This document shows, piece after piece, positions 10,790-32,000 of a DNA stretch of 32,000 bases. The stretch is from Schaalia meyeri (GTDB taxonomy: Bacteria; Actinomycetota; Actinomycetes; Actinomycetales; Actinomycetaceae). The stretch covers positions 360,001 through 392,000 of the forward strand of contig NZ_FNLK01000012.1 in the NCBI RefSeq assembly GCF_900105015.1. Reading direction: 5' to 3'. Made by a program: the position numbers and the translations under genes. The stretch's first letter is position 1; each line of letters starts with the position of its first letter. The notes under the pieces are model-generated. The model had not been told where the DNA came from. It was given only the letters and a program-made list of their open reading frames with translations, and did no database searches.

Positions 10790-10972
10790 GTGTACTCCTT
10801 GGGTCTTCATTGACGAGGCCGGGGCCGGCATGTGTGTTCACGGTAACACCATCGCACCCGTTCGGGGAGCCGATTGCTCTCACTTGCCCGCGGGGCGACG
10901 CCTGGGCCCCGTTCCCGCCCCCACCGCCCTCGCCCCCCCTGCCAGTCACCGCCGGGAGGACTGGGGCTTTCG

Positions 10973-11569
10973 TTAAGACGCCCCGATTCCCTCGGCGAAG
11001 AGACTCCGCATTCGATCGATGAAGACCAGTTCCTCCTCGGTGGGGGGCTTGGTGGAGCCGCGCTCGATCAGGGTCAGGGCCACCGACGCGTAGACGTGAG
11101 AGGCCAGGGGCAGAACCGAATCGTCAACGCGGCCCTTCGCCCACTGCCTGAACACCGACCGGTACATCTGGCGTAGCCGCTCGCTCAGGTCGCCGTCGTC
11201 TCCCCCTCGAATGCACAGCAGCGTGGTCAGGGCGCGCCCGTTGCGCGCGTAGAAGTCGGCCAGGTGCCGGCTCTGGGCCACACCGTCTCCTCCGCCGAGC
11301 CACATGCTCTCGATGGCCGGGGTGATGTCCTCCAGGAGGTAGGAGACCACCTCGGCCAGCAGGGCGTCCTTGTCCGTGTAGTGGTCGTAGAAGGTGGTGC
11401 GCGACACCATTGAGGCCGCGCAGATGTCGGTGACGCTCACGTGAGCGTAGGGCTTGGCCCGGCATGCCGTAATGAGGCCGGAGCGGATAGCGCGCCGCGT
11501 CTTTCGGATGCGCAGGTCCAGGTTCTTCTCGGCGTCTCGCCCGTGTGTGTCGGCCGCCCGCAAGAACAT
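10973..11569 (-). CDS. TetR/AcrR-family transcriptional regulator
   Basis: 198 aa. N-terminal HTH signature VSVTDICAASMVSRTTFYDHYTDKDALL. Divergent from a hydrolase gene. Confidence 0.88.
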   Translation of the reverse strand: MFLRAADTHGRDAEKNLDLRIRKTRRAIRSGLITACRAKPYAHVSVTDICAASMVSRTTFYDHYTDKDALLAEVVSYLLEDITPAIESMWLGGGDGVAQSRHLADFYARNGRALTTLLCIRGGDDGDLSERLRQMYRSVFRQWAKGRVDDSVLPLASHVYASVALTLIERGSTKPPTEEELVFIDRMRSLFAEGIGAS

Positions 11570-11613
11570 GTCTCTCCGATCAATAGCTCAGCATTTGCAT
11601 CCCTATCCTACGC

Positions 11614-11655
11614 ATAGCGGATGGAGTGTTCGGTAACAAACACTCCATCCGCTAT
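11614..11655. promoter_or_regulatory. 17-bp perfect inverted repeat, candidate TetR operator
   Basis: ATAGCGGATGGAGTGTT (11614-11630), 8-nt spacer, AACACTCCATCCGCTAT (11639-11655). It is centred in the 127-bp divergent intergenic region. Confidence 0.55.
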
Positions 11656-11696
11656 TGTGCGATCCGCCCTGGCTGACACGCGCGTAACCTCGAAGC

Positions 11697-12860
11697 ATGT
11701 TCACGCACTATACGGGCAACAGGCAATTCGACCTGCAACTGAACCGCTCCCTGAACCCGATCCTGGACCGCCCCGGAATGGAGCGCCTGGCCGCGAGCGC
11801 CCTCCCCCGCATCCGCTCCACCCGCCAGATCACTGAGCTCGCCCAGGAGTTGGCGGAGCGCTTAGAGTCCGAGGGGGACGCGGCGGCCGCGTGGCGCCTG
11901 CACTCCCTGGCGGCCTTTTATCTGCCCGCGAGCGACCCGCGCAAGCGCCGCTTCATCAACGCGATGTCGCGCGGCTTCGACGCCTCTCACTCCCACCTGG
12001 CGCTCAGCCGCCACGCGATCCCCTACGGCGGCGGGGCTCTGACGGCGATCCGCTGGGAGGCGGACCTACGCGACCGTGCTCGCTGCGGCGAGGCCGTCCC
12101 GCGCGTCCTCGTCATGATGAACGGCTTCGACGGCTACGCGGAGGAGATCATGAGCTTCGCCGAACACTTTCCTTCCCGCCCCTTCGACATCATCGCCTTC
12201 GACGGGCCCGGACAGGGGCACACGGCGCTGGCGGGTATGCCTCTGGAGCCGCGCTGGGAGCACCCGACGACCGCGGTCCTGGACTACTTCGACCTCAACA
12301 GCGCGGCCGCCCTCGGCCTGTCCTTCGGTGGCTACCTGGTCATGCGCGCCGCCGCCCACGTGCCGCGCATCAGCCACGTCATCGCTTTCGACATGATGTA
12401 CCGGCTGCTGGACGGGCTGACGATGCCCCTGCCCCGCCCCCTGCGCCCCCTCGTTTCCTCGGTCGTCGAGCGCGCGCGGCCCGCGTGGCTGATCGACGCG
12501 GCCATGTCCGTCGTACCCCGCGCGAGCGCGGACCTGGCGTGGAAGCTGCAGCAGGCGCGCCACCTGACGGGACTGAGCAGGCCCAGCGACGTGGTGCGGG
12601 CGCTGGGAGCGTTCACAATGGAGCCCCTGGCGGGCATGATTCGCCAGCCCTGCCTGGTGATGGCGGGGGACGCGGACCAGTACGTGCCGATCACACGCCT
12701 GGCGGACGTGCGACGCGTCCTGGCGGGCGCCGAATCGCTGGATGTGCAGGTGTTCCACCAGGCGCAGGACCCGGACATGGCGCAGCACTGCCAGATCGGA
12801 AACCCTCACCGAGCCTTTGAGATCATGGGTGACTGGCTGACGCGTTCACCTGCGCACTAG
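11697..12860 (+). CDS. Alpha/beta hydrolase
   Basis: 387 aa with FDGPGQGH and nucleophile elbow LGLSFGGYLV. Divergently paired with the TetR gene. Confidence 0.82.
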   Translation: MFTHYTGNRQFDLQLNRSLNPILDRPGMERLAASALPRIRSTRQITELAQELAERLESEGDAAAAWRLHSLAAFYLPASDPRKRRFINAMSRGFDASHSHLALSRHAIPYGGGALTAIRWEADLRDRARCGEAVPRVLVMMNGFDGYAEEIMSFAEHFPSRPFDIIAFDGPGQGHTALAGMPLEPRWEHPTTAVLDYFDLNSAAALGLSFGGYLVMRAAAHVPRISHVIAFDMMYRLLDGLTMPLPRPLRPLVSSVVERARPAWLIDAAMSVVPRASADLAWKLQQARHLTGLSRPSDVVRALGAFTMEPLAGMIRQPCLVMAGDADQYVPITRLADVRRVLAGAESLDVQVFHQAQDPDMAQHCQIGNPHRAFEIMGDWLTRSPAH

Positions 12861-12901
12861 AGCCCCACGTCAGCCGACCTGATCCCACTGAGCGAGCATT
12901 T

Positions 12902-12920
12902 TTCGATATTTTGTATCGAA
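12902..12920. promoter_or_regulatory. Small AT-rich inverted repeat upstream of the defence operon
   Basis: TTCGATA-ttttg-TATCGAA in an AT-rich 87-bp leader. A second inverted repeat, ATAGC-n5-GCTAT (12935-12949), overlaps the ATG. Confidence 0.3.
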
Positions 12921-12947
12921 TACGACGTTTTGAGATAGCATGTCGCT

Positions 12948-14258
12948 ATGCATCTCCTGCGATTCACGTTTGAGAACCATCGGTCGTTCCGCGACGAGGC
13001 GACCCTCGACCTGACGCGCTCCTCCCTCAAGACACTCCGCCTACCGCAGGGCACCACATGGGGTGACCACATCCACCACGTGGACGGGATCTACGGGGCC
13101 AATGCGTCCGGGAAGACGAATGTCCTCGACGCGCTCCACTACACGCTTGGGGCCATCGGGTCCTCTGCAACATCCTGGCTCGATCACTCTCAATTCCCTC
13201 GAGCGCCCTTCGCCCTCACCCCGCAGTCCACGACAGTTCCCGCCACATTCGAGCTCGAGTTCATTCACGACGGCCGGCGCTATGAGCATCGATTCGTCGC
13301 GAGCGCTGACGGCGTTGTTGATGAATCACTCCGCGTCGTCGGCACTCGATGGAAAACGGTCTACACGCGGTCGAAGAACGGACGCGTCAAGGGCCTCAGG
13401 GGAATCCCAAGTGTCCACTCGCGCGAACTTGCACTATCACGCGCAGCTCGACTCGGCAATGCGATCATCGAGCCTATCTGGAAAGCACTTATGCGTGGAT
13501 TCGACATCTATCGCGTCGGAGACCGCGAGGTTAGTGAACGCCTCGATCACATCGCACGACAGCTCCAAGACCGAACCCTCAGCCTTGATGCTCTCGTCAC
13601 CCTCGCACACATCGCGGATACCGGGATCACAGACATTGAGGTTGAGGTTGAAGAACGAGCAATTCCCTCACAGTTCGCACAGCTACTCGCACAGATGATC
13701 GCTCCTTCGAACGACGCCGATCAGGAAGACACACCAGAGAACTCGTCGGACGAAGCCGAGGAGCTGAGCAATTTCATCGCACGCAACCTCCTTTTCCGCC
13801 ATGGAACAGAGAGCGGAAGACTCAGAAACTCCGACGAGTCCACGGGAACCATGGCTTGGCTTGCACTGGGGACAGCCGTCGTCAGTGCTCTCAGGCAGGG
13901 CAAAGTCCTCGTCGTCGACGAGCTGGGGGCAAGCCTGCACCCACAGCTTTCCCGCCTCATCATTGACTGGTTTGAAGATCCAGAAATCAACACGACGGGT
14001 GCCCAGCTGATATTCACGAGTCATGACATGACCCTGCTCGATGCAGGCCGTGGCGACAGGGAGAAGTGGGAGCAGGTGTGGTTCGTTGAGAAGGGCGCCG
14101 ACGGAGCGAGCGAACTCTTCAACCTCGCTGACTTCCCGCTCCAAAAGGGCAGCAACATCGTCAAGCAGTACCTCGAGGGCCGATTCGGCGGCGTGCCCTA
14201 CACGGTTCCTTCGCTCATACACACACTCCTGAACACTCACGCCGAGGAAAAGGAGTGA
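12948..14258 (+). CDS. AAA_15/AAA_21-type (ABC/SMC-like) ATPase, AbiLi/RloA-like defence ATPase
   Basis: 436 aa. Walker A GANASGKTN (13095-13118), Walker B/D-loop VLVVDELGASLHPQ, H-loop IFTSHD. Lower G+C than the flanks. Followed 6 nt later by an RloB gene. Confidence 0.88.
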   Translation: MHLLRFTFENHRSFRDEATLDLTRSSLKTLRLPQGTTWGDHIHHVDGIYGANASGKTNVLDALHYTLGAIGSSATSWLDHSQFPRAPFALTPQSTTVPATFELEFIHDGRRYEHRFVASADGVVDESLRVVGTRWKTVYTRSKNGRVKGLRGIPSVHSRELALSRAARLGNAIIEPIWKALMRGFDIYRVGDREVSERLDHIARQLQDRTLSLDALVTLAHIADTGITDIEVEVEERAIPSQFAQLLAQMIAPSNDADQEDTPENSSDEAEELSNFIARNLLFRHGTESGRLRNSDESTGTMAWLALGTAVVSALRQGKVLVVDELGASLHPQLSRLIIDWFEDPEINTTGAQLIFTSHDMTLLDAGRGDREKWEQVWFVEKGADGASELFNLADFPLQKGSNIVKQYLEGRFGGVPYTVPSLIHTLLNTHAEEKE

Positions 14259-14264
14259 GAAGCA

Positions 14265-14849
14265 ATGGGACGACGTGATCCTCGCAAATCCCGTCACGCA
14301 AAACAGCTCAAGACGCATTACGCGGTCTTCACGGAAGGGTTGGTCACTGAACGTCAGTACCTTGAGCTGTTGCTCAAGCACCTCCGTCCTCGCCATGCGG
14401 CTTTTTCGATTAAACCTATCGGCAAAGATCCTTCGAGAATATTCACCGAGTACCGCAAAGCCGAGCGACGAGGCGATTTCGACCGCGCGATTCTCGTCGT
14501 TGACGTCGATCAGCACCACAAGCTTGACACGGTTTTGCGGGACTGCAGGTCTTCTACCGCCGTTGACGCAATCGTCACCAACCCTTGCTTCGAGCTGTGG
14601 CTGCTCTGGCATGCCACCGACAGACGAGGGTATACGGAAACACGCGAGTGTGTCAGGCTCGCGCGCATCAACAATCTGACGGGGGACAAGGATCTCAACA
14701 CGAAGTTTCCGATTGCCAGCTTCCCCGAGGCCGTGAAGCGGGCACAACAAGCGTGGTCGGAGCTCGCACCGAACAAGAAGGGTCCCAATCCGTCATCCGC
14801 CATGCCGTGGCTCATCGACCTGATGACGTCCACGCACCACAACAGCTAG
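14265..14849 (+). CDS. RloB-like (Toprim-related) protein, AbiLii-like
   Basis: 194 aa with RloB hallmarks: FTEGLVTERQYL (the CEGxxTE-type Glu), VVDVDQH (DxD) and TNPCFELWLLWH. Confidence 0.85.
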   Translation: MGRRDPRKSRHAKQLKTHYAVFTEGLVTERQYLELLLKHLRPRHAAFSIKPIGKDPSRIFTEYRKAERRGDFDRAILVVDVDQHHKLDTVLRDCRSSTAVDAIVTNPCFELWLLWHATDRRGYTETRECVRLARINNLTGDKDLNTKFPIASFPEAVKRAQQAWSELAPNKKGPNPSSAMPWLIDLMTSTHHNS

Positions 14850-15784
14850 CTGAGCTCAGCTCGCCTTCCGCCAACAACCCCGCAGCGGCGGGCCACGGCG
14901 TGCATGACGGCGGCGGCCCCGTCGTTTTCGACGGCCGCGGTCACGTGGCGCGCGTGAGAGCGCACCTCCTGGGACGCGCCACCCATAGCGACACCAAACG
15001 CCGCCCACTGAATCATCGCGATGTCGTTCGTGCCGTCGCCCACAGCGACCGTGCCGAAACCGGGGACGTCCAGGCGCGAGCGCAGCGCCTCCAGGCCGCT
15101 GGCCTTCGTGACCCCCAGGGGTTCGATGTCGGCCCACGACGTCCAGCCGACGAAGACCTCGTGCGTGCGCGCCATGCTCAGGGAATCCAGGGCCGCCTCG
15201 AAGCGATCGCGATCCATGCCGGGCACGCGCACGACGACCTTGGGGGTCGGCGTGGCGGCCAGCTCCTCCATGGAGACAATGCGACGGTCGGCGCCCTCGA
15301 TCTCGTTGTTCGGGAAGGGCGCGGACAGCAGCGTGTCCGGGTGAGGCATTGACGCAAACACCGCCTCCGGGAGGGCGTCCGCGATCTCTGCCAGGAGCGG
15401 CCCGGGCACAAAGGTGCGTTCCTCGACGATCTCGCACGCCCCGTCCGACACGCGCACGAGGGTGGCGCCGTTATTGCACAGCGCCCACCCGTCCGTAAAG
15501 TTCAGAAGCTCCAGGATCGGGCAGACCCCCTCGAGCGCGCGGCCCGAGGCGATGATCACCTGGGCACCCGCGCCGGCCAGGCCGTGGATCCCCTCAAGGA
15601 CGCGCTCGGTCGCCCCCGCGGGGGTCAGGATCGTGCCGTCGATGTCCAGCGCAACCAGGACCTTCGACGCGTCCGACGGGAAGTCCCGGGGCAGGGCGGC
15701 CCCGGCCTGGTCGCGCAGGACACCGAAGGGCCGGGCGGCCTCCCCCGAGGGCGGGACCGTCAGGAAACGCTCCTGCGTCATCAC
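14846..15784 (-). CDS. HAD-superfamily Cof-type (IIB) phosphatase
   Basis: [11 protein letters not shown] (motif I) and [16 protein letters not shown] (motif IV). The start (GTG 15784 or ATG 15781) overlaps the serS stop. Confidence 0.88.
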
Positions 15785-17055
15785 GCCACCGGGTTCAGGA
15801 CCTCAAGCCCTCCCAGGTAGGGGCGCATGGCCTCGGGCACGTAGACGGACCCGTCAGGGCGCTGGTGGTTCTCCAGGATGGCGACCAGCCAGCGGGTGGT
15901 GGCCAGCGTGCCGTTGAGGGTGGCGACCGGAGCCATGCCGTCCTCGCGGCGCTCGCGAATGCCCAGGCGGCGTGCCTGGAAGGTGGTGCAATTCGAGGTC
16001 GAGGTGACCTCCATGTAGCGCTCCTGGGTGGGCAGCCACGCCTCGCAGTCGAACTTGCGGGCGGCGGAGGTCCCCAGGTCGCCGGCGGCCGTGTCGATGA
16101 CGCGGTAGGGCAGCTCGACCTTGGCCAGCATCTGTTCCTCCCACGCCAGGAAGCGCGCGTGCTCCTCGGTGGCGTCCTCGGGGCGGCAGTAGCTGAACAT
16201 CTCGACCTTGTTGAACTGGTGGACACGGATGATGCCGCGCGTGTCCTTGCCGGCCGACCCCGCCTCGCGGCGGTAGCAGGTGGACCAGCCCATGTAGCGC
16301 TTGGGGCCGCCGTCAAGGTCCAGGATCTCGTCCGCGTGGTAGCCGGCCAGGGCCACCTCGGACGTGCCTGTCAGGTACAGGTCGTCGGTCGGCAGATAGT
16401 AGATCTCGTCCGAATGCTCATTCAAAAAGCCGGTGCCGCCCATGACCTGGGGGGTCACCAGGGTCGGAGTCATCATGGGGACGAACCCGGCCTCGATCCC
16501 CTGGTCCATGGCCATCGTCATGAGGGCCAGCTCGAGGCGGGCGCCAATGCCCTTGAGGTAGTAGAAGCGGGCGCCAGAGACCTTCGCGCCGCGCTTCGTG
16601 TCGATCGCATCCAGCCCCTCACCGAGGGCCAGGTGGTCCCTGGGCGCAAAGCCCTCCTGGGCAAAGTCGCGGGGGGTGGGCCCCTCGTGGCGCAGGACCA
16701 CGAAGTCCTCTTCGCCGCCGACGGGCACGCTGTCTGCGATCAGGTTGGGCAGCAGGCGCGCCAGGCGGTCGGCCTCGGCGTCGGCGGCGCCCGCCCGGGC
16801 CTCGGCGGCCTTGACCTGCTCGGCGAGCTCCTTGGCGCGGGCCAGGATCGCGGGGCGCTCTTCCTTGGAAGCGCGGCCCACGGACTTGGAGACCTCCTTC
16901 TGGGTGGCTCGCAGCGACTCGAAGGCCTGCAGGGCCTCTCGGCGCTTCGCGTCGGCTTCGATGATCTCATCAACGAGGCCGGGGTTGGCTCCGCGGGCAC
17001 GCTGGGAGGCGCGGGCGGGTTCGGGGTTCTCACGCAGGGCACGCACATCAATCAT
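15781..17055 (-). CDS. serS: Seryl-tRNA synthetase
   Basis: 424 aa. N-terminal coiled-coil arm [12 protein letters not shown]... and class II core motifs (FRxE-type [29 protein letters not shown]). Confidence 0.96.
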
Positions 17056-17171
17056 GCGACCATCCTATGTCAGGTGGGCGCGTCGTGTCCCCACCCGCCC
17101 CGGGGTGAATACCGCGTCGCAGGTCAGGTTTATGCGTCCTCCCTCGATCAAGGGGTCGGGTTACCCAACAG

Positions 17172-17316
17172 TTATCCACCTTTGGCGAATAACCGTGTGG
17201 ATAACCCGGCGAGGTGCATACACCAACGGACCGCACCCGAATCGAAGCGCAACGAATATACATTTGTCAGCCCGTCTTCACCTCCCTCTCCGGTCGGCGA
17301 GATACCCTTATCCACA
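17172..17316. promoter_or_regulatory. Cluster of three DnaA-box-like 9-mers
   Basis: TTATCCACC (17172-17180, + strand), TTATCCACA (17196-17204, - strand) and TTATCCACA (17308-17316, + strand, abutting ATG 17316). Boxes 1 and 2 form a 9-bp inverted repeat, GTTATCCAC/GTGGATAAC. Confidence 0.45.
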
Positions 17317-18623
17317 TGGACGCATCGTCTTGGGCACTCGTCGCGGCCTTTGTCGCGGGAGGAATCGGGGTGGCTCGCATCGCCACCGCGCTGACGCGTC
17401 GGCACCGCAGGCGCCGCGCGCTGGCGGCGCCCTCTACCGCCGACGACCCATCGCGCGGGCGCCCGCGCCCCTGGGTCGTCATGAACCCCTCGAAGCACGA
17501 GGACCCGCAGGCATTTAAGGACCTCATCAACCGCGAGGCCGCAAAACTCGGAATCACCCACGTTCACTGGCTCGAAACCACCCGCGAAGACCCCGGAACC
17601 GGCCAGGCGGTGCGCGCGCTCGACCTGGGAGCCTCCCTCGTCATCGCGGCCGGCGGGGACGGGACCGTGCGCGCGGTCGCCGCCGGCATGGCGGGATCGG
17701 GAGTGCGCATGGGCATCATCCCGGCGGGCACCGGCAACGTCCTGGCCGGCAACCTGTCCATCCCCGATGACCCGGTGCACGCCCTGGCCATTGCCCTGGG
17801 TGCCAACCACCGGGACGTTGACCTGGCGTGGGTGCGTTTCGAGGAGCACGCCGAGGCTCCCACCCTGCCCGCCGAGGGAGGGCTGCGCCGGGCCGCCCGC
17901 GCCACTCGGGCCCCTTCGCCGGCGGGCGCCTCGTCCAAAGAGCCCGGGGCCGACGAGTACGCGTGCCTGGTTATCGCTGGCATGGGCTACGACGGTGCGA
18001 CCATGGCCGACACGAACAGCGACCTGAAAAAGCGCATCGGGTGGATCGCGTACGTGTGGGCGGGCCTGGGCGCCATGGGGGTCCCGCGCATGAAAGCGCG
18101 CCTGACCCTGCGCTCCCCCGCCGCGCCCGCACCCGACCCACTCGGGGTGGGCGACCAGATTTCCGGCAGGATCATCGACCACACCGGGGCATCCTGCCCG
18201 CGCTCAAAGCGTCCGACGCACCAAGCCGACGAGGTCACCGACGTTGAGGCGCGCTCCGTCATGTTCGCGAACGCGGGCGAACTGAAGATGCTGGTCCTGG
18301 CCCCCGACGCTGACCTATCCGACGGGCTCATCGACGTCATCGCGGTCGACGCGCAGGCCGGCCTGCTCGGCTGGGCGGACGTGACGTGGAAGATGCTGGG
18401 GCAGCTCATCGGTCTGCGTCCCGTCAACCTGCCCGTGTCAACGGGCACGCTCGCCTTCCGACAGGCCAGGGGCGCGTCCGTGAGTGCCCAGGAGGCGCAG
18501 GTGTGCCAGGTGGACGGCGACGCGATCGGTGTCGCCCGCACCATGCACATTCGGACCCAGCCGGGCGCGCTCGACGTCGCGGTGCCCGCCGAACGCACGT
18601 GGATGGAGCTGCTGCCCGGCTGA
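17316..18623 (+). CDS. Diacylglycerol/lipid kinase family protein (DAGK_cat, YegS-like) with an N-terminal TM helix
   Basis: VIAAGGDGTVRAV and IIPAGTGNVLAGNL motifs. Start chosen at MDASSWALVAAFVAGG, the hydrophobic helix. The track ORF starts at 17214. Confidence 0.82.
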   Translation: MDASSWALVAAFVAGGIGVARIATALTRRHRRRRALAAPSTADDPSRGRPRPWVVMNPSKHEDPQAFKDLINREAAKLGITHVHWLETTREDPGTGQAVRALDLGASLVIAAGGDGTVRAVAAGMAGSGVRMGIIPAGTGNVLAGNLSIPDDPVHALAIALGANHRDVDLAWVRFEEHAEAPTLPAEGGLRRAARATRAPSPAGASSKEPGADEYACLVIAGMGYDGATMADTNSDLKKRIGWIAYVWAGLGAMGVPRMKARLTLRSPAAPAPDPLGVGDQISGRIIDHTGASCPRSKRPTHQADEVTDVEARSVMFANAGELKMLVLAPDADLSDGLIDVIAVDAQAGLLGWADVTWKMLGQLIGLRPVNLPVSTGTLAFRQARGASVSAQEAQVCQVDGDAIGVARTMHIRTQPGALDVAVPAERTWMELLPG

Positions 18624-18630
18624 GGAGGCG

Positions 18631-19638
18631 CTACACCAGGGGCCACGAGGGCGCGGGGCCGCCCGCCTCGCCCGACCCGTCGCCGCCGCGGAGCAGGTCT
18701 GCGACCCACGCGCGACCCGCGCGGAAGGCCTCGTCGCTGGTCCCCGGGGCCATCGACGCACGAACGCCGTCCACGCGCGGGTATGATCCCATGAAGCGGA
18801 CATCCGGCGAATACCTGTGCAGGTCCACCAGCGCCGCCTGCACCCGCTCCTCCCGGATGTGTCCGACGATGTCAATGCTGAAGGTGTAGTTGCCCAACCC
18901 ATCGCCGCTGGGACGCGACTCGATACGCGACAGGTCGACCCCGCGCACCGCGAACTGCTCCAGCAGCGTCAGCAGCGCGCCCGATTCGTTGACGGGCAGC
19001 GCAACCTGGATGGTCGTCTTATCCGCGCCGGTCGGCAACGGCACCGCGCCGGGGCGTGCCACCAGCACGAAGCGGGTGATCGCGCCCGGATTGTCGGCCA
19101 CGTCCCCGAACAGGGCCTCCAGGCCGTAGGTCGACACGGACATCGCGTTGCACAGGACCGCATCGAAAGAGGCGTCCCCATCCGACAGCAGCTCCGCGGC
19201 GGCGGCGGTCGACGTCGCGGGCAGGTGGATCGCGCCCGGGAAGGTCTGTTCCACCCAGGCCCGACACTGGGCCCACGCGTGCGGGTGCGTGCCGATCCGA
19301 CGAATATCGTCCGGGCGCGTGCCCGGCAGGACAGCCAACTGGAAGACCACGTTGACGTGCATCTCGGCGAGAATCACCAGTGGCTCGCCGTGCGACAGCG
19401 AATCCAACGTCGCGTTCACGCCACCCTCGATAGAGTTTTCAATCGGAACGACGGCCCGATCGGCCTCACCCCGGCGCACGGCCGCCAGCACCTGCGGGGC
19501 GCTGGGCATCGGCAGCAGGACCGCGCCGGCGGGCGCGACCTGGTGAACAGCCTGTTCGGTAAACGTACCGAATGGCCCCAGAAACGCGATGCGCGGCTTG
19601 GCGCCCAGGGGCGCGGGGCCGGGAATGTTCGTCGTCAT
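18631..19638 (-). CDS. pheA: Prephenate dehydratase
   Basis: RIAFLGPFGTFTEQA N-terminus, ACT-domain ESRP motif (LSRIESRPSG) and FSIDIVGH. The start is either ATG 19638 or 19680 (track). Confidence 0.9.
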   Translation of the reverse strand: MTTNIPGPAPLGAKPRIAFLGPFGTFTEQAVHQVAPAGAVLLPMPSAPQVLAAVRRGEADRAVVPIENSIEGGVNATLDSLSHGEPLVILAEMHVNVVFQLAVLPGTRPDDIRRIGTHPHAWAQCRAWVEQTFPGAIHLPATSTAAAAELLSDGDASFDAVLCNAMSVSTYGLEALFGDVADNPGAITRFVLVARPGAVPLPTGADKTTIQVALPVNESGALLTLLEQFAVRGVDLSRIESRPSGDGLGNYTFSIDIVGHIREERVQAALVDLHRYSPDVRFMGSYPRVDGVRASMAPGTSDEAFRAGRAWVADLLRGGDGSGEAGGPAPSWPLV

Positions 19639-19800
19639 GCTGCAAGGGTATCGACACGCCCCCGCGCGGCGCGTTCCCACGGGTGCGAAAGCGGCTCATT
19701 GTGGCCAATCGCGCGGGCTCACGCAGGGCACGGGCGGGAGCTGGCTCCGCGGTGTCGCCGCGGCGCTCCGCCCCGCTCACAGTCGGCCAGTCCCGCAGTC

Positions 19801-22731: not shown

Positions 22732-22796
22732 GATAGGGCCCTTTTCTGCCGGGAATGTGTCCCCCTTACCCTACCTTTGTTGACCACGAATATAGG

Positions 22797-25796
22797 ATGG
22801 TCAACATGAGGAAGCGCAAGGATTCACACGACGACACTCCGGTCGGGGACAAGAATCTCCTTTTCGTCCCCTCCTCATCCGACAATCCATCGGAATCCGG
22901 GGTCGACGCGCTGATGGGAATGATGAACGAGGCCACCACCGCTCCGCTTCCCGCCCCTCCCCCGCCCTTGCCGCCCTCGGAAACGCCCACCCAGGTCATG
23001 ACGCCCGTCGACGCGGGCGCCCCGGCCGCGGCGCCGATCGACATGCCGCCTGCCATTCCCCCCACCCAGCCGACGCCGACTAAGGCCGAAGAGGCCTCGC
23101 CGACTCTCGTCCTGAGCGCGGTAGAATCCCCGCCTCCCCCACCGGACGAGGCAGCCGCGCCCCCGCAGAGCGCCACGCCGGGGGACGCACCGCCTAAGGC
23201 AGCCGAGCCTCTCGCCGACTCTCGCGAGGAGGAACCCGCCCCCTCCATTCCCATCGAGGCGACGACGAGCGGAGAGGACGCTCCCGCGCCCCCCGTCCGC
23301 AGGCTTAGACTCCCCCGCCCCGTCTACATCGCGGATCGCGTCCTCGCCGTGCGTCGCCGCCGGGAGGACATCGCCGACGTCGTCATCTCCCTGCTCGCAC
23401 TCGTCGCCATCTGGACGATCGGCACACTGGCCAGCGCAACGACGCGCGGCGTGACGATGGACGTCCTACGCTTCCAGGTCATTCGCCAGATCCTGCTCCT
23501 GCCCGTCAGCCTCGTCGAAGGCCTCATCATCCTGGTCACGCCCATCCTCGTGATCGTCTCGCTCGCCCTGCGCAGGCGGCTCCAGACGGTCATCCAGGTA
23601 CTGGTCACGAGCCTGGTCGCCGCGGTCGGCGGGTGGATCATCATCCTGCTCACCGGACTGCTTCCCTCCGACCTGACCGCGCCCCTCAGCGTGGACCGGG
23701 CGATCGCCACGCAGGGTTCACAAACCGGCTTCGCGATCGCCATCAACCTGGTGATCGTCACCCTGTGTGCGCTCTTTACATCGGCGGGCGAGGCCCAGTC
23801 GATGCGCGCGATCCGCTGGGGATGGGCCGGGTTGTGGATCATCTTAGTCCTGGGCGTCCTGCGCTCCTCTATGACCCTGCCCGTCGCTTTCATCTCCGTC
23901 TTCCTGGGCCGCGCCTTCGGATCGGGATCGCGGTGGATCATGGGTTATGACGACCAGAGGGCCCGGGGAGACGCACTGGTGGAGGCGCTGCTCAGAATCG
24001 GCATCACGCCGTCGCGGATCGTGCGCTCCGACCTGGACACCTCCGAAGAGCCCCTGTCCACGTGGGCCATCGCCGAGAACTCGCGCGGGCGCCTCACGCA
24101 GATGCCCGCTGACCTGGGCGACATGGGGGTCACCGTGACGCGGCGCCCCGACCCCAACCACCACCGGCACTACCAGGTGTGGAGCGACGCCGGATTGGCG
24201 TACGAGCTCATCGTCATGGACCCGGGTCAGGAGCTGACCGGCACCCTCCTGGAGATGTGGAACAACCTGCGCCTGCGCGGGATCAGCCGGTGGGTGTCCC
24301 CCTCGATGAAAGCACAGGCGGAGCGTTCATCTTTCACCACGCTACAGGCGCTGCGCGCCGGGGTGTTCACACAGGAGCCGATCAGCATCGCTTCGGCATC
24401 CGACTCGATCATCATGGTGCTTTCCGCGCTGCCCGTGACGACTCCCCTGACGACGCTCGGCGAGGACGCCACGGACGAGGTGCTGGACCGGGCGTGGGAG
24501 CAGCTGCTGTTGGCTCACTCGCGCGGAATCTCGCACCGCGCGCTCACCCCCGAGGCCGTGGTCGTCGATTCCTCCGCCGACGTGTGGCTGCTGGATTGGG
24601 ACTCCGGCGAGGTGGCGACTACCGAGCTGAACCAGTCGATCGACGTCGCCCAGATGCTGGTCCTCACCGCCCTGGCTGTGGGTCCCGAGCGCGCGCTTGC
24701 GGCCGGCCGCCGCTGCGTCGGCGAGGAGATGCTGATCGCGTGCGCCCCGGTCATCCAGAAGCCGGTTCTGCCCGCGTCGGTGAACCAGATGCTGCGCCGA
24801 TCCGACCTGCTCAGCGAGCTGCGTGCCGACCTCGTGGGGGACTCCGAGGCCGAGACCGCCCCCACGGCGGACCTGCAGCGTTTCCGCCCCCGCATGATCT
24901 TTACCATCGCGGTCCTGTTCATCGCTGTCTTCGTCGTCCTGGGTTCGCTCAACTTCCGCGATATCGTCTCCACGGTGACCAGCGCAAACCCGTGGTGGAT
25001 GGCCGCTTCCGCGGTGCTGGCCTGCCTGATTTGGGTGGGGTCGGCCATCCCGCTCATCGCCCTGTCTCCCGAGAAGCTGCGCTTGAGCGACACGCTCATC
25101 GCGCAGGTCGCAGCGTCGATTATCACGATCGTCGCGCCCGCCGGCGTGGGACCCGCCGCCCTCAACCTGCGCTACCTGCGCAAGCGCCGCGTCCCGACCG
25201 CGATGGCGGTCACGACGGTGACGCTCATGCAGATCTCTCAGGCGCTCATCACGATCATCCTGCTGCTGCTCGTCATGGTCATCGCCGGTTCCTCCCTGTC
25301 TGTATCGGTGCCCTACGGCACGATCCTGGGGGTCGTCGCCGTCGTGATGGTGGCGGTGGGCGTCATTGTTGCCGTCCCACGGATCCGCCGCTGGATCTGG
25401 GTAAAGATCGAGCCGACGTGGCAGCAGGTGTATCCGCGCCTGCTGTGGATCATCGGCCAGCCTCGCCGCCTGGCCGCCGTCGTTACCGGCAACCTCCTGA
25501 TGAACATCGGCTATGTGGGCGCGTTCTGGACCGCCATGATCGCCATGGGTGGTTCCATGAACTTCTCCACGGTCGCGATCACCTACCTGACCGCGAACGC
25601 GGCCGGATCCTTCATTCCGTCCCCCGGCGGCATCGGCACGGTGGAAACGGCGCTCACGTCGGGCCTGACCGTCGCGGGCGTATCCTCGTCGGTCGCTATC
25701 GCCACCGCCCTGCTGTATCGTCTGGTCACCTTCTACGGCCGCATCCCCTTCGGCTGGCTGGCCATGAAGTACATGGAGAAAAAGGACCTGCTGTAG
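22797..25796 (+). CDS. Multi-domain membrane protein: Pro-rich N-terminus, TM block, kinase-like (probably inactive) domain, and a C-terminal LPG-synthase-TM/flippase-like domain
   Basis: The C-terminus has the UPF0104/lysyl-PG-synthase TM signature FIPSPGGIGTVETAL. The middle has HSRGISHRALTPEAVVVD...LLDWDSGE, resembling the kinase/APH catalytic loop and DxD/DFG regions. The start is uncertain (22755, 22797 or 22806). Confidence 0.85.
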   Translation: MVNMRKRKDSHDDTPVGDKNLLFVPSSSDNPSESGVDALMGMMNEATTAPLPAPPPPLPPSETPTQVMTPVDAGAPAAAPIDMPPAIPPTQPTPTKAEEASPTLVLSAVESPPPPPDEAAAPPQSATPGDAPPKAAEPLADSREEEPAPSIPIEATTSGEDAPAPPVRRLRLPRPVYIADRVLAVRRRREDIADVVISLLALVAIWTIGTLASATTRGVTMDVLRFQVIRQILLLPVSLVEGLIILVTPILVIVSLALRRRLQTVIQVLVTSLVAAVGGWIIILLTGLLPSDLTAPLSVDRAIATQGSQTGFAIAINLVIVTLCALFTSAGEAQSMRAIRWGWAGLWIILVLGVLRSSMTLPVAFISVFLGRAFGSGSRWIMGYDDQRARGDALVEALLRIGITPSRIVRSDLDTSEEPLSTWAIAENSRGRLTQMPADLGDMGVTVTRRPDPNHHRHYQVWSDAGLAYELIVMDPGQELTGTLLEMWNNLRLRGISRWVSPSMKAQAERSSFTTLQALRAGVFTQEPISIASASDSIIMVLSALPVTTPLTTLGEDATDEVLDRAWEQLLLAHSRGISHRALTPEAVVVDSSADVWLLDWDSGEVATTELNQSIDVAQMLVLTALAVGPERALAAGRRCVGEEMLIACAPVIQKPVLPASVNQMLRRSDLLSELRADLVGDSEAETAPTADLQRFRPRMIFTIAVLFIAVFVVLGSLNFRDIVSTVTSANPWWMAASAVLACLIWVGSAIPLIALSPEKLRLSDTLIAQVAASIITIVAPAGVGPAALNLRYLRKRRVPTAMAVTTVTLMQISQALITIILLLLVMVIAGSSLSVSVPYGTILGVVAVVMVAVGVIVAVPRIRRWIWVKIEPTWQQVYPRLLWIIGQPRRLAAVVTGNLLMNIGYVGAFWTAMIAMGGSMNFSTVAITYLTANAAGSFIPSPGGIGTVETALTSGLTVAGVSSSVAIATALLYRLVTFYGRIPFGWLAMKYMEKKDLL

Positions 25797-27912: not shown

Positions 27913-28168
27913 TGTGCCAGGTGAGCGGGGCCTGGTTCAGGAATATACGAGGCCGAGGCAGGTTCGATGATCAAGGTTTCACAAATAGGCCTGTCAAAAG
28001 TGTCACATCTTATGAAGCGGGCGGTTTGTCCAACCGCGCGGGCGTGCGAGTCGGTTCCGCTCCAGCGGGCGCGCATCCAAGCGAAACGCTCACTCCCATC
28101 CATGCGCCTGGGCGTGAGCAGTGAACTATCGCGAATAGCTCCATTCATTGAGCGACCCACCACTTCGC

Positions 28169-28197
28169 TTGACATGTGTTTGGTCGATTTGTAGGTT
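28169..28197 (+). promoter_or_regulatory. Sigma-A-type promoter of the WXG/T7SS-like operon
   Basis: TTGACA (28169-28174), exactly 17-nt spacer, TAGGTT (28192-28197). GTG 28204 lies 7 nt after the -10, so the transcript is predicted to be leaderless. Confidence 0.55.
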
Positions 28198-28203
28198 GTG
28201 CTC

Positions 28204-28614
28204 GTGAGTGGGGATGTTGGCTTTGTTCCAGGGTCGCTGATTGAGGCGGCTTCGGGTGTTCAGGACGCGTGCGACCCGTTTGTTGAGTCGGTTTCTTCCT
28301 TGGGCGATGAGGTTGCTGGCTTGATTCCGGGTGTGAATGGTTCTTACGTGGAGCCGTTGAGCAGCTCGCTGGAGTTGTGGGGTGAGTCCTTGAAGGTCTT
28401 GTTCGATGATCTGGGCCGTTTGGTTGAGGCGCTGGTGGGGGTTGAGAACTCGTTCGGAGCGTGTGAGAGTGAGATTGTTGCTTCGCTCATTCAGGCTGCC
28501 TCTGGTTATGGCGGGGATGGCGGGGATTCGTCGGGGGTAAATCCATTCGCTTCGGAGTTGGGTGGTGCCGGTGCTTCTGCTGGCAGGGGTGCTTCTGGTG
28601 CCTCGTCGGGGTGA
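28204..28614 (+). CDS. Small helical protein with a Gly/Ser/Ala-rich tail (orfA; possible T7SS substrate partner)
   Basis: 136 aa from GTG 28204 (the track ORF starts at 28198). No signal peptide. Predicted helix-turn-helix length. It starts with V-S-G-D, as orfB does. Confidence 0.65.
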   Translation: MSGDVGFVPGSLIEAASGVQDACDPFVESVSSLGDEVAGLIPGVNGSYVEPLSSSLELWGESLKVLFDDLGRLVEALVGVENSFGACESEIVASLIQAASGYGGDGGDSSGVNPFASELGGAGASAGRGASGASSG

Positions 28615-28648
28615 GAGCCGTTTGAGAAGGTCTTGGGGGGGGAACGCT

Positions 28649-28948
28649 GTGAGTGGTGATTCGATGTTGGTGTTTCGTGAGGCGGACGCATCGGCGATGA
28701 GCGAGGTGTTCGCGAAGAAGGCGGCGTTAATGCGTGAGTTTGTGCCGGATGTGCGCGATGGGGTCGTGAGTTCGGTGGGTGATTGGACTGGCGAAGCGCG
28801 TACTGCTTGTGATGCCGCGTTGGAGCGTTTGGTGGGGCGCGGGGAGGAGCTGGCCGATTTGTTACAGTCGGCTTCTGGCGCGATGGACGAGATCCGAGAA
28901 GCGGGCATTCATGCTGAGGCGATGGCGTTCGCGCATATCGATGGCTAA
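28649..28948 (+). CDS. WXG100-family (ESAT-6-like) protein (orfB)
   Basis: 99 aa from GTG 28649, with a G-rich SD (gggggggaa) 4-5 nt upstream. Central W-x-G motif in VGDWTGEARTACD between two helical halves. Canonical length of about 100 aa. Confidence 0.72.
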   Translation: MSGDSMLVFREADASAMSEVFAKKAALMREFVPDVRDGVVSSVGDWTGEARTACDAALERLVGRGEELADLLQSASGAMDEIREAGIHAEAMAFAHIDG

Positions 28949-28960
28949 GGGAGCGAAGTG

Positions 28961-29299
28961 ATGAGCGATTTTGAGGTTGATCTGCAGGCGATGTCGTCTC
29001 TGGTGTCGTCGTTGTCTTCGTTTGAGGAGGCTGCCAAAGAGTATGACGTGGAGGATTGGGTCCCCAATTCGGGAATGCTCGACAATCCGGACGTGTGGAG
29101 TGTGACAAATTCGTTCCAGGACACTTGGGAGAAGGGCCTGAACGATTTGCGTTCGGATATTTCGGCCGCCAGCAGCGCCCTGGGTGGGGCGTTGGGCGCG
29201 TATGGGGAATATATGGAAAAGTCCAGCGAACTCATGCAGACAGTCGCCCAGGCTGCGTCTGACCTGGAGCAGTCTCCCGTTGTTGGTTCGGGGGCGTGA
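28961..29299 (+). CDS. Small acidic helical protein (orfC; EspC-like or T7SS-target-like)
   Basis: 112 aa from ATG 28961, with AAGGGAG SD at 28947-28953. No signal peptide or TM helix. Helical heptad-like sequence. Confidence 0.65.
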   Translation: MSDFEVDLQAMSSLVSSLSSFEEAAKEYDVEDWVPNSGMLDNPDVWSVTNSFQDTWEKGLNDLRSDISAASSALGGALGAYGEYMEKSSELMQTVAQAASDLEQSPVVGSGA

Positions 29300-29305
29300 T
29301 TTGCT

Positions 29306-32000
29306 GTGGGCGTGAACGCTCAGGGTGCTCCTGTTTTCACGATTGGCGGCGATCCGGGTGGGATTCGCACGCGCGCCCAGGTGATGGCGGATCGGGCGGC
29401 GGAGTTCGCTGACGTGTATTCGGGCCTCACATCCCTGAAGTCTGACGGGTGGAAGGGGCGCGCGGCGGATCGTTTCCGTGAAAAGTTTAAGGTTCAGACC
29501 CAGGGGTGGATGGACGCGCAGACCGCGTTTTCGAGTGCCTCTGCGGCTTACCTGTCCTACGCCACCACGTTGGAGAACGCACAGAACCAGTTGCCCGGTA
29601 TCCGGTCGCGGTGGGAGCAGGGCCGCGCCGCGGTCGAAGCGGCGCAGGCCAATCAGGACAGCGTTCGCAGCCAGGCCGCGTCCGCTGGCGTGCCCGCGGT
29701 GTTTGATTCTTCGTGTGACGAGGGGCCGGGCGAGGACGCCATGGCCGCAGCGCAGACGGATTTCAACACGCTGGTCGCCACTGTCAACGATGCGGGGAAT
29801 CAACTGATCTCGGCGCTCAACGCGGGGATCGCGATGCTCCCCGAACGCACATGGTGGGACGCTACCTGCCGCACGGTCGGCTCTGTGCTGGTTGGCTTCG
29901 TGGAAGCCGTCGCTGACTTGTTGAAGCTGGCATGCAAGCTTGGCGGTTTCGATACCGTATTTGATTTTGGGCGCATGCTGATGGGGGACATGTCTTGGGA
30001 TGAGTACATGGCTAAGCACGCGTATCTTCCCACCGAAACCGTCACAGGTTTGGCCAAAGCGTTATGGCAGGACCCCATTGGTTTCATGAAGGGGCTTGGT
30101 AAGGCAGTTTTAGACTGGGATGCGTGGGCCGATGACCCTGGTCGAGCGATCGGACACCTGCTCCCCGACGTGATCATCGCGGTAGCAACGGCAGGTACAG
30201 GCACAGGGGCATCCGCGGGCGAGAAAGCCGCATCAGGAGCGGCCCGCGCGGCTCGCGCGGCCCGCATCGGCCGCGAGGTTTTCAAAGCGATCCTGCCGGT
30301 CAACCCCGACGATATTCGCGCGGTATCTAAACTCGGTAAAAACCTGGTCGAAAAGCTCTCGAACCGCGGCATCAACACCACGGGCAGCGTCGCGCAGCTA
30401 TGCAACGATGCAAAGAAGATGACGAGCGCCTTGAACATAGACCACGCGGCGGTCGGGACAAACAAGTTCGCGGGGGCATCCAACCTCACCGGGGACGCAT
30501 CCCACGCTGGCCGGGGGGCTGACAATCTCGCGGGAGCCTACAACCTTGCGGGAGACACTTCACACGCAGGCCGGGGCACCAACAACCTCGCCAGTGCCTC
30601 CAACCTCGTCGGGGATACCACCCACGGTTCGAGCAACCTCTCCGGGGCCTCCAACCTCACCGGGGACGCCGCTCACGCAGGCAGGGGCACCAATGGCTTT
30701 AATGGGTCCTCCAACCTCGTCGGGGATGTCGCTCACGCTGGCCGGGGGACTAGTGGTTCTTCGGGTGTCGCCGACACGGCCACGATGGCCGAGGCGTCGC
30801 GTGGTTCGCACGCGAATGGTTACGCTCATGCGCAAGTCGGCGGCGGCTCCTACGGTGGTGATACCGGCGTTCACGGTGCTTCATCCACCCACGCGCAGGG
30901 AGCCCACCACCCCGATGGCGGGATGCCCGCGAGGGATGTGCACGCCGGATCACGCTCAGACTCCGCCGCCGGTTACAGCGACTCCCACCCGACGGCTTCC
31001 CACGACATCCAGAGTGCCCCCCGGGGTGCCTCCCACGACCCGTCCCAGGGCGGCTCCCGGGGTGCCTCCCGTGATGTGTCCAGCTCGGGCGGTCACGGCA
31101 ATCAGCCGCAGAACTCCCACGCCGCACAGGGCGGGAACGCCTCTGGCGCAGAGCGGGGCTCGTCATCGAATGGTTCGTCTTCGAGTCAAGGACACCACGG
31201 ATCCGGTCAGGGTACCCAGGGCGGCCCACAGCCCACCAACCCCGCAGCCCCCAAGCACCCCACAGGTGGGGACGCCGCTGCCCCGCAGCGCTCCCAGGCT
31301 GCGGTGAGCGGCGAGGCCCCGCGCGGCAGCGAGGCGGCCACGCCCAGCCAGGCCTCGCCCAAGCCCGCTGCAAAAACTCACGCGCCCGACGCTGACGCTC
31401 CACACGCTAAGGGGGACGCGTCCAAGCCTGCCCCCCAGGCGGAGCCATCCAAGCCCGCACCCGACACCGACCGTGCTCACGCCAAGACCCACGAGCCCAG
31501 GTCCGCGCATCCCACCCAGGACTCCCCCACCAAGACCCGCGAGCCTGCGGGAAAGGGCGAGGTGAATGAAACACCCGTCGCGGCCGACAAGCCGACGACG
31601 GAGCACCACGCCGGAAACAAGCCTGGCTCGCACGCGGGCGAGAAGCGCTCGGGGCACGCAGCCGACACGGACAATAAAAACGCAAACAACTCGGCACACA
31701 AGCAAGAACCCGAGACCAACTCCGAGGCCAACCCTGGCGAACAAGCGCACGAGGACGCCGCGAAGTCCAACAACACCAAGCAGACCACGCGCGACGACCC
31801 GACAGCTGACAAGCACGCCCCCAACGAGAAGGCAGAGGACCCCGCAGACACCAAGACCCACGGCGATAAGGACGAGACAAGCACGCCCCCGGCGAAGGAC
31901 AACGCGCACGATGCCAGGTCCGAGGCGGATAGCAGGCCCACCAAGAGCAGTGAGCCCGAGCCTGCGGAAAAGGGCGAGGTGAATGAAACACCCGCCACGG
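29306..32000 (+). CDS. Giant T7SS-signal (WXG-containing) domain protein, polymorphic-toxin-like; the 3' end lies beyond the window (orfD)
   Basis: Open frame from GTG 29306 to the window end (at least 898 aa, not in the track). The N-terminus GDPGGIRTRAQVMADRAAEF...SDGWKGRAADRFREKF...AAYLSYATTLENAQ matches the helical WXG-type N-domain of actinobacterial T7SS toxins. It is followed by repeats and a disordered region. Confidence 0.8.
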   Translation, partial: MGVNAQGAPVFTIGGDPGGIRTRAQVMADRAAEFADVYSGLTSLKSDGWKGRAADRFREKFKVQTQGWMDAQTAFSSASAAYLSYATTLENAQNQLPGIRSRWEQGRAAVEAAQANQDSVRSQAASAGVPAVFDSSCDEGPGEDAMAAAQTDFNTLVATVNDAGNQLISALNAGIAMLPERTWWDATCRTVGSVLVGFVEAVADLLKLACKLGGFDTVFDFGRMLMGDMSWDEYMAKHAYLPTETVTGLAKALWQDPIGFMKGLGKAVLDWDAWADDPGRAIGHLLPDVIIAVATAGTGTGASAGEKAASGAARAARAARIGREVFKAILPVNPDDIRAVSKLGKNLVEKLSNRGINTTGSVAQLCNDAKKMTSALNIDHAAVGTNKFAGASNLTGDASHAGRGADNLAGAYNLAGDTSHAGRGTNNLASASNLVGDTTHGSSNLSGASNLTGDAAHAGRGTNGFNGSSNLVGDVAHAGRGTSGSSGVADTATMAEASRGSHANGYAHAQVGGGSYGGDTGVHGASSTHAQGAHHPDGGMPARDVHAGSRSDSAAGYSDSHPTASHDIQSAPRGASHDPSQGGSRGASRDVSSSGGHGNQPQNSHAAQGGNASGAERGSSSNGSSSSQGHHGSGQGTQGGPQPTNPAAPKHPTGGDAAAPQRSQAAVSGEAPRGSEAATPSQASPKPAAKTHAPDADAPHAKGDASKPAPQAEPSKPAPDTDRAHAKTHEPRSAHPTQDSPTKTREPAGKGEVNETPVAADKPTTEHHAGNKPGSHAGEKRSGHAADTDNKNANNSAHKQEPETNSEANPGEQAHEDAAKSNNTKQTTRDDPTADKHAPNEKAEDPADTKTHGDKDETSTPPAKDNAHDARSEADSRPTKSSEPEPAEKGEVNETPAT
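30479..30769 (+). repeat. In-frame tandem repeat, five units of 60 nt (one is 51 nt), inside orfD
   Basis: Units start at 30479, 30539, 30599, 30650 and 30710. The encoded consensus is SNL-x-GD-x-x-HAGRG-x-x-N-x-x-x-A. Confidence 0.85.

Follow-up and report, generated by a model that had tools for sequence, protein, structure and literature searches.

What are the four genes that close a 32,000-nucleotide (nt) stretch of the genome of Schaalia meyeri, an oral bacterium (contig NZ_FNLK01000012.1, positions 360,001–392,000; hereafter the window), and do they encode a toxin that leaves the cell with partners of its own? The genes, three small ones (orfA, orfB and orfC) and the large orfD, lie in series on the + strand at 28204–32000, and analysis of the open reading frames (ORFs) returned intergenic gaps of exactly 34, 12 and 6 nt, as an earlier sequence-only reading of this DNA had given them. 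That reading had proposed an effector of a T7SS (type VII secretion system) with small helical partners, and the core of the proposal was supported: the orfD head belongs to a T7SS signal family, the partners co-occur with it in other genomes, and an inducible Esx system has been reported in S. meyeri (Wang et al. 2026 preprint, PMC13622651). We put at roughly three in four the probability that the locus encodes a polymorphic toxin exported by a T7SS of the Esx type (type VIIa) with dedicated helical partners; the roles of the individual small proteins are considerably less certain than this overall picture. The orfA–D module is genuine and conserved in many species, but it belongs with systems described before and is not a new class.

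Domains of the orfD protein

The window is 99.98% identical to CP066065.1 (locus L002), which was used to read past base 32000, and the full-length orfD protein, read to its stop codon there, has 1493 amino acids (aa). Residues 13–180 matched the Pfam family T7SS_signal (PF21725; 74.5 bits, E 1.6e-20, cut-off 27), which was found in all database homologues of orfD (n = 68) except two (P0019 and P0026). Alignment of 44 orfD homologues revealed that G48, W49, G51 and R52 are invariant (G-W-x-G-R), and the translation contained both motifs named by the sequence-only reading, W49-K50-G51 and TWWDAT...DPIGFMKGLGKAVLDWDAWADDPGRAIGHLLPDV. We agree with the same reading that none of the four N-termini resembles a Sec or Tat signal, as judged by eye. 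Within the family alignment, invariance is highest at residues 181–310 (DP.GF.K.LGK..LDWD.W.DDP.RA.GHL.PD, then a hydrophobic AVATAGTG), for which no Pfam match was found.

Residues 1–335 were modelled with AlphaFold2 from an alignment of 44 homologues. The modelled head consists of helices at 17–42, 52–127 and 140–177 with WKG at the first turn, and its mean predicted local distance difference test (pLDDT) score, taken over 10-residue blocks of residues 11–180, was mostly 83–98 with one dip to 63 at the 131–140 loop. Residues 181–310 were modelled with low to moderate confidence, low past residue 270. The best specific Foldseek matches of the head in the PDB were PPE proteins of PE-PPE-EspG complexes (probability 0.96–1.0, TM-score 0.39–0.49), a likeness that we regard as suggestive only.

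At the other end, the last ~200 residues matched the Pfam family TNT (tuberculosis necrotizing toxin; PF14021) with 26.6 bits (E 8.1e-6, cut-off 27) and aligned over ~155 residues with the Mycobacterium tuberculosis TNT (PDB 4QLP_B; E 3e-13), the GQPGGxIQ stretch included. The C-terminal domain is thus likely homologous to the TNT glycohydrolase of nicotinamide adenine dinucleotide (NAD+), and this activity is predicted for it.

Between head and toxin end, residues 401–1290 contain 4% hydrophobic residues over 890 aa, and this hydrophilic spacer is presumably disordered because of that composition. A spacer this large is confined to orthologues from oral Schaalia and Actinomyces, whose toxins have 729–2030 aa against the usual 490–620 aa: the longest copy, of 2030 aa, is that of S. 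odontolytica UMB0018 (L009, 1053–7154), two other oral Actinomyces (L012 and L014) have copies of 729–735 aa, and nearly all loci outside Schaalia (L015–L088) encode a PF21725 toxin of 490–620 aa. The predicted disordered spacer is, as judged from these sequences, a clade-specific and length-variable expansion. These lengths could also be taken to mean that a huge low-complexity insertion inactivated a compact toxin of ~550 aa and that the S. meyeri copy is decaying or non-functional, all the more as the spacer differs in length among strains and the gene is split in L005 and also in L089. We consider this very improbable, since the frame is open for 1153–1493 codons in seven of eight S. meyeri loci with head and toxin domains intact, conservation within the species reaches 97–100% for head, partners and immunity gene alike, and disordered regions also occur in AesB, an experimentally secreted Esx effector of Schaalia (PMC13622651).

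Strain-variable toxin ends and a candidate immunity gene

The sequence-only reading had expected any toxin domain to lie beyond base 32000, with an immunity gene after it, and the TNT domain, an ORF of 181 aa and a series of orphan cassettes were found there. In L002, the 181-aa ORF overlaps the orfD stop codon and is followed, in this order, by a truncated copy of itself (113 aa), an orphan ADP-ribosyltransferase (ART) fragment with genes of 295 aa and 167 aa, an orphan TNT fragment (66% identical) and a second 181-aa gene (85.6% identical). Comparison of the eight S. meyeri loci (L001–L008) revealed that the first 2.7–4.1 kb of the region are 97–100% identical and that the toxin ends differ, being TNT in L001–L003 and ART/ADPrib_exo_Tox in L004 and L006–L008. 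The ART-ended toxins are followed by the same 295-aa and 167-aa genes, neither of whose products has a Pfam match; the toxin end of L006 shares 96.7% identity with the orphan ART cassette of L002, and the 295-aa and 167-aa genes beside that cassette are 94–98% identical to their L006 counterparts.

The locus therefore has a constant N-terminal trafficking part, toxin ends that vary between strains, and a candidate immunity gene with orphan cassettes downstream, which are the features by which polymorphic toxins are recognized. Because swapped ends together with orphan cassettes are the textbook signature (PMC3482391), we read it as a polymorphic toxin whose warhead is exchanged by recombination. 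The position of the 181-aa ORF and its co-variation with the TNT cassette make its product the likely TNT immunity protein, which probably protects the producer. A related arrangement occurs on an oral Actinomyces-type contig (L089, 3028–7827), where the same four genes stand elsewhere on the chromosome between ldh and a cation-efflux gene; the toxin is split there into a 494-aa head ORF and a 547-aa ART ORF, followed by two 167-aa genes and an Imm61 gene.

NAD+-depleting enzymes are frequent in anti-phage defence, and the locus might accordingly be an intracellular toxin–antitoxin or abortive-infection module, with an NADase or ART that is never secreted and is set free inside the producer, for example upon phage attack. 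The overlap of immunity and toxin genes, common among antitoxins, and an AbiL-type defence pair 14 kb away in the window fit this possibility. It seems hardly credible to us nonetheless, since the head is of the T7SS_signal/WXG type and its WXG100-like partners are conserved, the exchange of warheads with orphan cassettes is a signature of secreted polymorphic toxins (PMC3482391), and it is hard to see what a cytoplasmic toxin–antitoxin pair would gain from an 890-aa disordered spacer.

The three small proteins

Substitutions between Schaalia species are concentrated at third codon positions in all three small frames; for orfC compared with its L012 counterpart, codon positions 1, 2 and 3 differ at 20, 15 and 53 sites, respectively. 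This enrichment, together with the recurrence of the frames beside orfD homologues, shows that the small ORFs are real genes. The orfA protein had no Pfam or NCBIfam match of its own, and the same collections gave nothing relevant for orfC. The sequence-only reading had called orfB WXG100-like; a match to WXG100 (PF06013) does exist, but at 18 bits (E 0.0036) it stays below the cut-off of 27.3, as does the match to TIGR03930 (25.5 bits, E 1.1e-5, cut-off 44.85). Among orthologues, the orfA protein of Nocardioides pini passed the WXG100 cut-off with 29.9 bits, orfB proteins gave sub-threshold matches to WXG100 or WXG100_2, and orfC proteins gave weak matches to WXG100, EspC and DUF6507. Profile comparison with hhalign revealed that the orfA and orfB families are related (probability 80%, E 1.4e-5), and orfC was not clearly related to either. 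On this evidence, all three are best described as divergent WXG100-like proteins.

Each of the two families closest to the toxin gene has conserved features of its own. In the orfB proteins, a Trp stands at the centre and the C-terminal tail, EVxNVAIV(N/G), is conserved; the orfC proteins share the core SYD.EVDL...KD.DVEDLVP...RWE.G.NNL...NY.E. The motif Yxxx[DE] is present in 66 of 79 orfC sequences; the orfC protein of Schaalia seems, from the alignment, to have lost it in its canonical form. The exact orfC protein was found on S. meyeri chromosomes and on many oral metagenome contigs by exact-protein look-up, and a Schaalia-only orfC profile run against 1.84 billion representatives recovered 34 clusters, the profile being too narrow to gauge the size of the family.

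NCBI records name orfB "1-deoxy-D-xylulose-5-phosphate synthase" (e.g. WP_232618721.1), a clear mis-annotation of a WXG100-like protein, and orfA is missing from the NCBI annotation. Some gene callers place an antisense ORF of 253–260 aa across orfA and orfB (28126–28908); we rejected it, as its product is Ser/Arg/Thr/Asn-rich junk and the sense ORFs have homologues throughout the phylum.

Conservation of the module across species

The loci of other species were fetched from contigs representing one genome per species with an alignment of 16 orfD heads, which yielded 80 loci; the window was excluded from the counts. Homologues of the small genes, sought by three rounds of hidden Markov model search within about 1.1 kb upstream of the toxin, were present in 78 (orfC), 77 (orfB) and 76 (orfA) of the 80 loci, so that the co-occurrence that the sequence-only reading had asked for was borne out. 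For orfC, plain phmmer was enough to detect the homologue (E 1e-10 to 1e-18), which in essentially every locus stops only a few nt short of the toxin gene. The exceptions were a contig of only 1.3 kb (L013), one locus with no match to any of the three (L071), one with orfC only (L070) and one without orfA (L064).

The module was found in Actinomycetaceae, Nocardioides, Aeromicrobium, Motilibacter, Rubrobacteraceae and one Chloroflexota metagenome-assembled genome (MAG). In Actinomycetaceae (Schaalia, Peptidiphaga, Ancrocorticia and Actinobaculum), the genes are all co-directional in the order A>B>C>D. In the other hosts, the A–B pair lies on the opposite strand, divergent from C–D, and the inverted pair has a G+C content at third codon positions (GC3) of about 0.9, as genuine genes of those genomes typically do. 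The survival of the linkage through this inversion and across great phylogenetic distances suggests that the module is a functional unit. The complete set of four genes was seen in a Candidatus Limnocylindrales MAG (L034, Chloroflexota) and a Rubrobacteraceae MAG (L024, deep-branching Actinomycetota); either the module reaches past Actinomycetia, or these cases reflect contamination in MAG binning.

The inversion bears on a further possibility, namely that orfA and orfB are ordinary spare WXG100 substrates of the EsxA/EsxB kind that happen to stand beside a toxin, and that orfC alone, or nothing, serves the export of orfD. The two proteins are indeed more similar to each other and to generic WXG100 proteins than to orfC or the orfD head, their divergent transcription outside Actinomycetaceae makes them a separate transcription unit, and the orfA profile also matches a WXG100 gene beside EccC in L037. 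Yet the pair lies within about 1 kb of orfC–orfD in 76–77 of the 80 loci, in distant lineages and despite the inversion, which would be difficult to account for if they were functionally unconnected; the module relocates as a whole to different chromosomal sites; and a T7SS core is near one locus only, so that membership in an esx cluster does not by itself explain the pair. We therefore judge a merely incidental pair to be unlikely, while granting it a small share of the probability, and prefer orfA and orfB as dedicated partners of the toxin.

Secretion machinery and observations that weigh against export

No T7SS core gene was found in the window when the other 17 large ORFs were scanned with Pfam, as the sequence-only reading had reported. 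Among the 80 loci, only that of Aeromicrobium sp. (L037) has a T7SS core within 10 kb: an EccC gene 3 kb from the module (13731–17705, – strand) encodes 1324 aa with three Walker A motifs and scores 1182 bits to the Thermomonospora EccC (PDB 4NH0), and the locus contains a further WXG100 gene (19394–19702, + strand). In the genus of the window, EsxA, EsxB, AesA and AesB are secreted by a functional, eccC-dependent Esx system of S. odontolytica, and S. meyeri W712 induces Esx proteins upon infection with Saccharibacteria epibionts (PMC13622651). The candidate substrates of S. odontolytica that are encoded away from the esx cluster each adjoin a small WXG100-like gene (PMC13622651).

Several observations weigh against the reading of orfA–D as an exported toxin with dedicated partners. 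The presence of Esx in S. meyeri rests on a preprint about another strain (W712), no EccC gene was found in the window or within 10 kb of the module in the eight S. meyeri loci, and the distal candidate substrates of S. odontolytica were undetected in the secretome under the conditions used (PMC13622651). The orfA, orfB and orfC proteins of the window all score below every curated family cut-off, that of WXG100 included, and the Pfam TNT score of orfD falls 0.4 bits short of its own. The Schaalia orfC proteins are without YxxxD/E, the window reading YGEYM and the Schaalia clade YxEYM, and the orfC monomer model, all-helical, is of low confidence (pLDDT 52, from a shallow alignment of 20 sequences). 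The Foldseek matches of the head to PPE proteins have E-values of about 0.04–0.1, not significant alone, and BAR-domain helices score alike. The 181-aa protein has no Pfam or PDB sequence match, its immunity role being drawn from position and co-variation only.

Proposed mechanism

PE-PPE and EsxA-EsxB pairs form a helical bundle with a two-part secretion signal. By analogy, we infer that orfC, encoded directly upstream of orfD and probably translationally coupled to it, would pair with the WxG-bearing, PPE-like orfD head into a helical bundle, which would carry the two-part T7SS signal, orfD contributing WxG and orfC, in most lineages, YxxxD/E. The divergent WXG100 paralogues orfA and orfB would probably form a heterodimer of their own, which may act as a targeting factor within the bundle, in the manner of Lap or Tap proteins, or as a co-secreted helper resembling EsxE-EsxF of the M. 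tuberculosis cpnT operon. The complex would then be recognized by the EccC ATPase, for which the conserved C-terminal tail of orfB is a candidate docking signal. In the recipient, the TNT domain would deplete NAD+, and the 181-aa protein would shield the producer. The downstream orphan toxin ends and immunity cassettes would permit recombination and thereby the exchange of one warhead for another (TNT versus ART).

A bolder version concerns the oral clade. In oral Schaalia and Actinomyces, a compact 550-aa toxin might have gained a disordered spacer of ~0.2–1.5 thousand residues that lets the NADase or ART warhead reach through the thick wall to surface-attached cells; on this view the module would strike Saccharibacteria epibionts by contact, and orfA–orfB would be no simple chaperone but an EsxEF-like device dedicated to the export or translocation of the toxin. 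Esx has been reported to restrain Saccharibacteria epibionts in the genus Schaalia. We offer this version as speculation and think it improbable in its entirety.

Comparison with known systems

WXG-headed T7SS polymorphic toxins of Actinobacteria, those with ART payloads included, were catalogued in 2012 (Zhang et al., PMC3482391), and several characterized systems share features with orfA–D. At the level of layout, the locus resembles that of EatA, an M. abscessus toxin shown experimentally to bind TapA1 and TapA2, two helical proteins encoded upstream, and to act via the T7SSa ESX-4 (Benedict et al. 2026, PMC13444075): both are actinobacterial loci with small helical genes upstream, an elongated helical head and an immunity gene downstream (EatI in the EatA locus). 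The survey in the same study listed Actinomycetota loci with one or two Tap-like genes and TNT-family payloads. The S. meyeri locus differs in having three small genes, two of which form a separable and invertible pair, against two in the EatA locus, and in its predicted payload, a cytoplasm-acting NADase or ART, EatA being a cell-wall arabinanase. Its head belongs to PF21725, it has no lipoprotein immunity gene, and Schaalia is monoderm. The suggestion of the sequence-only reading that no equivalent partner set had been characterized consequently fails in general, given EatA with TapA1 and TapA2 (PMC13444075) and the Schaalia substrates encoded beside WXG100-like genes (PMC13622651), but stands for the PF21725 family as far as we found.

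The closest relative by payload is the esxF-esxE-cpnT-ift operon of M. tuberculosis (PMC7810871), which likewise combines two WXG100 genes, a TNT-ended toxin and an immunity gene (PMC7810871, PMC8593097, PMC12635105). The N-terminal domain of CpnT is an outer-membrane channel in a diderm, whereas Schaalia has no mycomembrane, and CpnT is directed at the host macrophage. The third partner orfC and the disordered spacer are features of the S. meyeri locus as compared with the cpnT operon, and the 181-aa candidate has no similarity to any PDB chain, the entry for the TNT-IFT complex included.

The Firmicutes T7SSb systems, LXG toxins with Lap proteins and EsaD with EsxB, EsxC and EsxD, share a helical head, two or three upstream helical partners, a variable toxin, and downstream immunity genes and cassettes (PMC9600955, PMC10801868, PMC10653861). 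Searches of the four proteins for LXG (PF04740), DUF3130 and DUF3958 gave no match at E up to 1, and the predicted machine is T7SSa (EccB-E/MycP), not EssA-C; the likeness is thus one of working principle and not of family membership. With the mycobacterial PE-PPE pairs, the locus shares an orfD head that is structurally closest to PPE in the model and a YxxxD/E motif in the orfC of most lineages, as in PE. Sequence homology to these pairs is absent, the Foldseek matches have weak E-values, an EspG-like chaperone gene was not seen, and the Schaalia orfC is without the motif.

AesA-AesB and the distal Esx candidates of S. odontolytica come from the same genus and secretion system and share helical heads, C-terminal disorder and, for the distal candidates, an adjoining small WXG100-like gene (PMC13622651); the oral-clade spacer of orfD recalls the disordered C-terminus of AesB. 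AesB differs in having no recognizable enzymatic domain, and it acts on Saccharibacteria epibionts (PMC13622651). Against this background, the distinctive points of the present module, as read from its sequences, are three partners in place of one or two, a near-universally coupled orfC, and orfA–orfB as a separable unit.

Significance

Esx and T7SS toxins of non-mycobacterial Actinomycetota are experimentally almost unstudied; a literature search for PF21725 or T7SS_signal found no papers, and no curated family model covers orfA, orfB or orfC. What emerges is a unit of four genes, conserved through much of the phylum and composed of a PF21725 toxin, a coupled orfC and a linked WXG100-like orfA–orfB pair. 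It offers testable candidates for the recognition of large toxins by T7SSa, and its compact forms from soil can naturally be compared with the giant-spacer forms from the mouth. S. meyeri is a host of Saccharibacteria, to which its Esx system responds, and this makes the locus a reasonable candidate effector in that interaction or in dental-plaque competition. The analysis also corrects two database errors, the naming of orfB as a DXP synthase and the absence of orfA from the annotation.

Base composition, promoter and neighbouring genes

The coordinates of the module and its parts are collected in Table 1.

Table 1. Features of the four-gene module, in window coordinates
Feature	Position	Strand	Description
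Promoter-like site	28169–28197	+	Putative, read from the sequence: TTGACA (28169–28174), 17-nt spacer, TAGGTT
orfA	28204–28614	+	136 aa (138 aa if GTG at 28198 is used); helical, divergent WXG100-like, Gly/Ser/Ala tail
orfB	28649–28948	+	99 aa; WXG100-like, W-T-G at centre, conserved C-terminal tail
orfC	28961–29299	+	112 aa; helical, acidic; directly upstream of the toxin gene
orfD	29306–32000	+	Polymorphic toxin gene; 898 codons, open at the window end; full L002 copy 10346–14827
orfD T7SS_signal head (residues 13–180)	29342–29845	+	Helical hairpin with W49-K50-G51 (29450–29458), then a third helix
orfD second conserved region (residues 181–310)	29846–30235	+	Defined from the family alignment
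orfD spacer, start (residues 401–1290 of the full protein)	30506–32000	+	Hydrophilic, predicted disordered
Tandem repeat, 60 bp x 2.6	30461–30615	+	From repeat search; listed with the orfD spacer

orfC and orfD are in the same reading frame. The lower G+C content and strand skew noted by the sequence-only reading were reproduced: G+C was 0.59–0.64 in the module segment and 0.65–0.73 in the backbone, GC3 was 0.60–0.75 in the module and 0.83–0.91 in backbone genes, and the interval 28001–29000 exhibited a GC skew of +0.31 and an AT skew of –0.30. The proposed horizontal acquisition is plausible, short of proof: module G+C lies below that of the flanks in every species checked, and the chromosomal site differs between species.

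Calling the site upstream of orfA a near-consensus promoter was too strong. TTGACA is a perfect match to the Escherichia coli –35 consensus and the 17-nt spacing stands, but TAGGTT matches the –10 consensus TATAAT at only 3 of 6 positions, because of which a sigma-70 consensus scan reported no site at 28169–28197. The orfA start codons follow directly on this site, which means that transcription may yield a leaderless mRNA.

Elsewhere, the window encodes housekeeping and envelope functions (a P-type ATPase, serS, pheA, DUF6541, an MprF-like protein and Abhydrolase_9). In the ORF at 22755–25796 (+, 1013 aa), no Pfam match was found over the first ~700 residues, and the lysyl-phosphatidylglycerol-synthase transmembrane domain is confined to residues 716–997. 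The P-type (E1-E2) ATPase at 2805–5363 (+) has its heavy-metal-associated domain at residues 552–610, internal and not N-terminal, which is unusual unless the ORF was miscalled. The AbiL-type anti-phage pair occupies 12948–14849 (+) in a low-G+C islet (0.59–0.60 against about 0.69) and consists of a 436-aa AAA_21 ATPase (PADLOC AbiLi match, E 3.6e-79) and a 194-aa RloB-like protein (AbiLii match, E 2.2e-18; Pfam RloB, E 3.7e-21).

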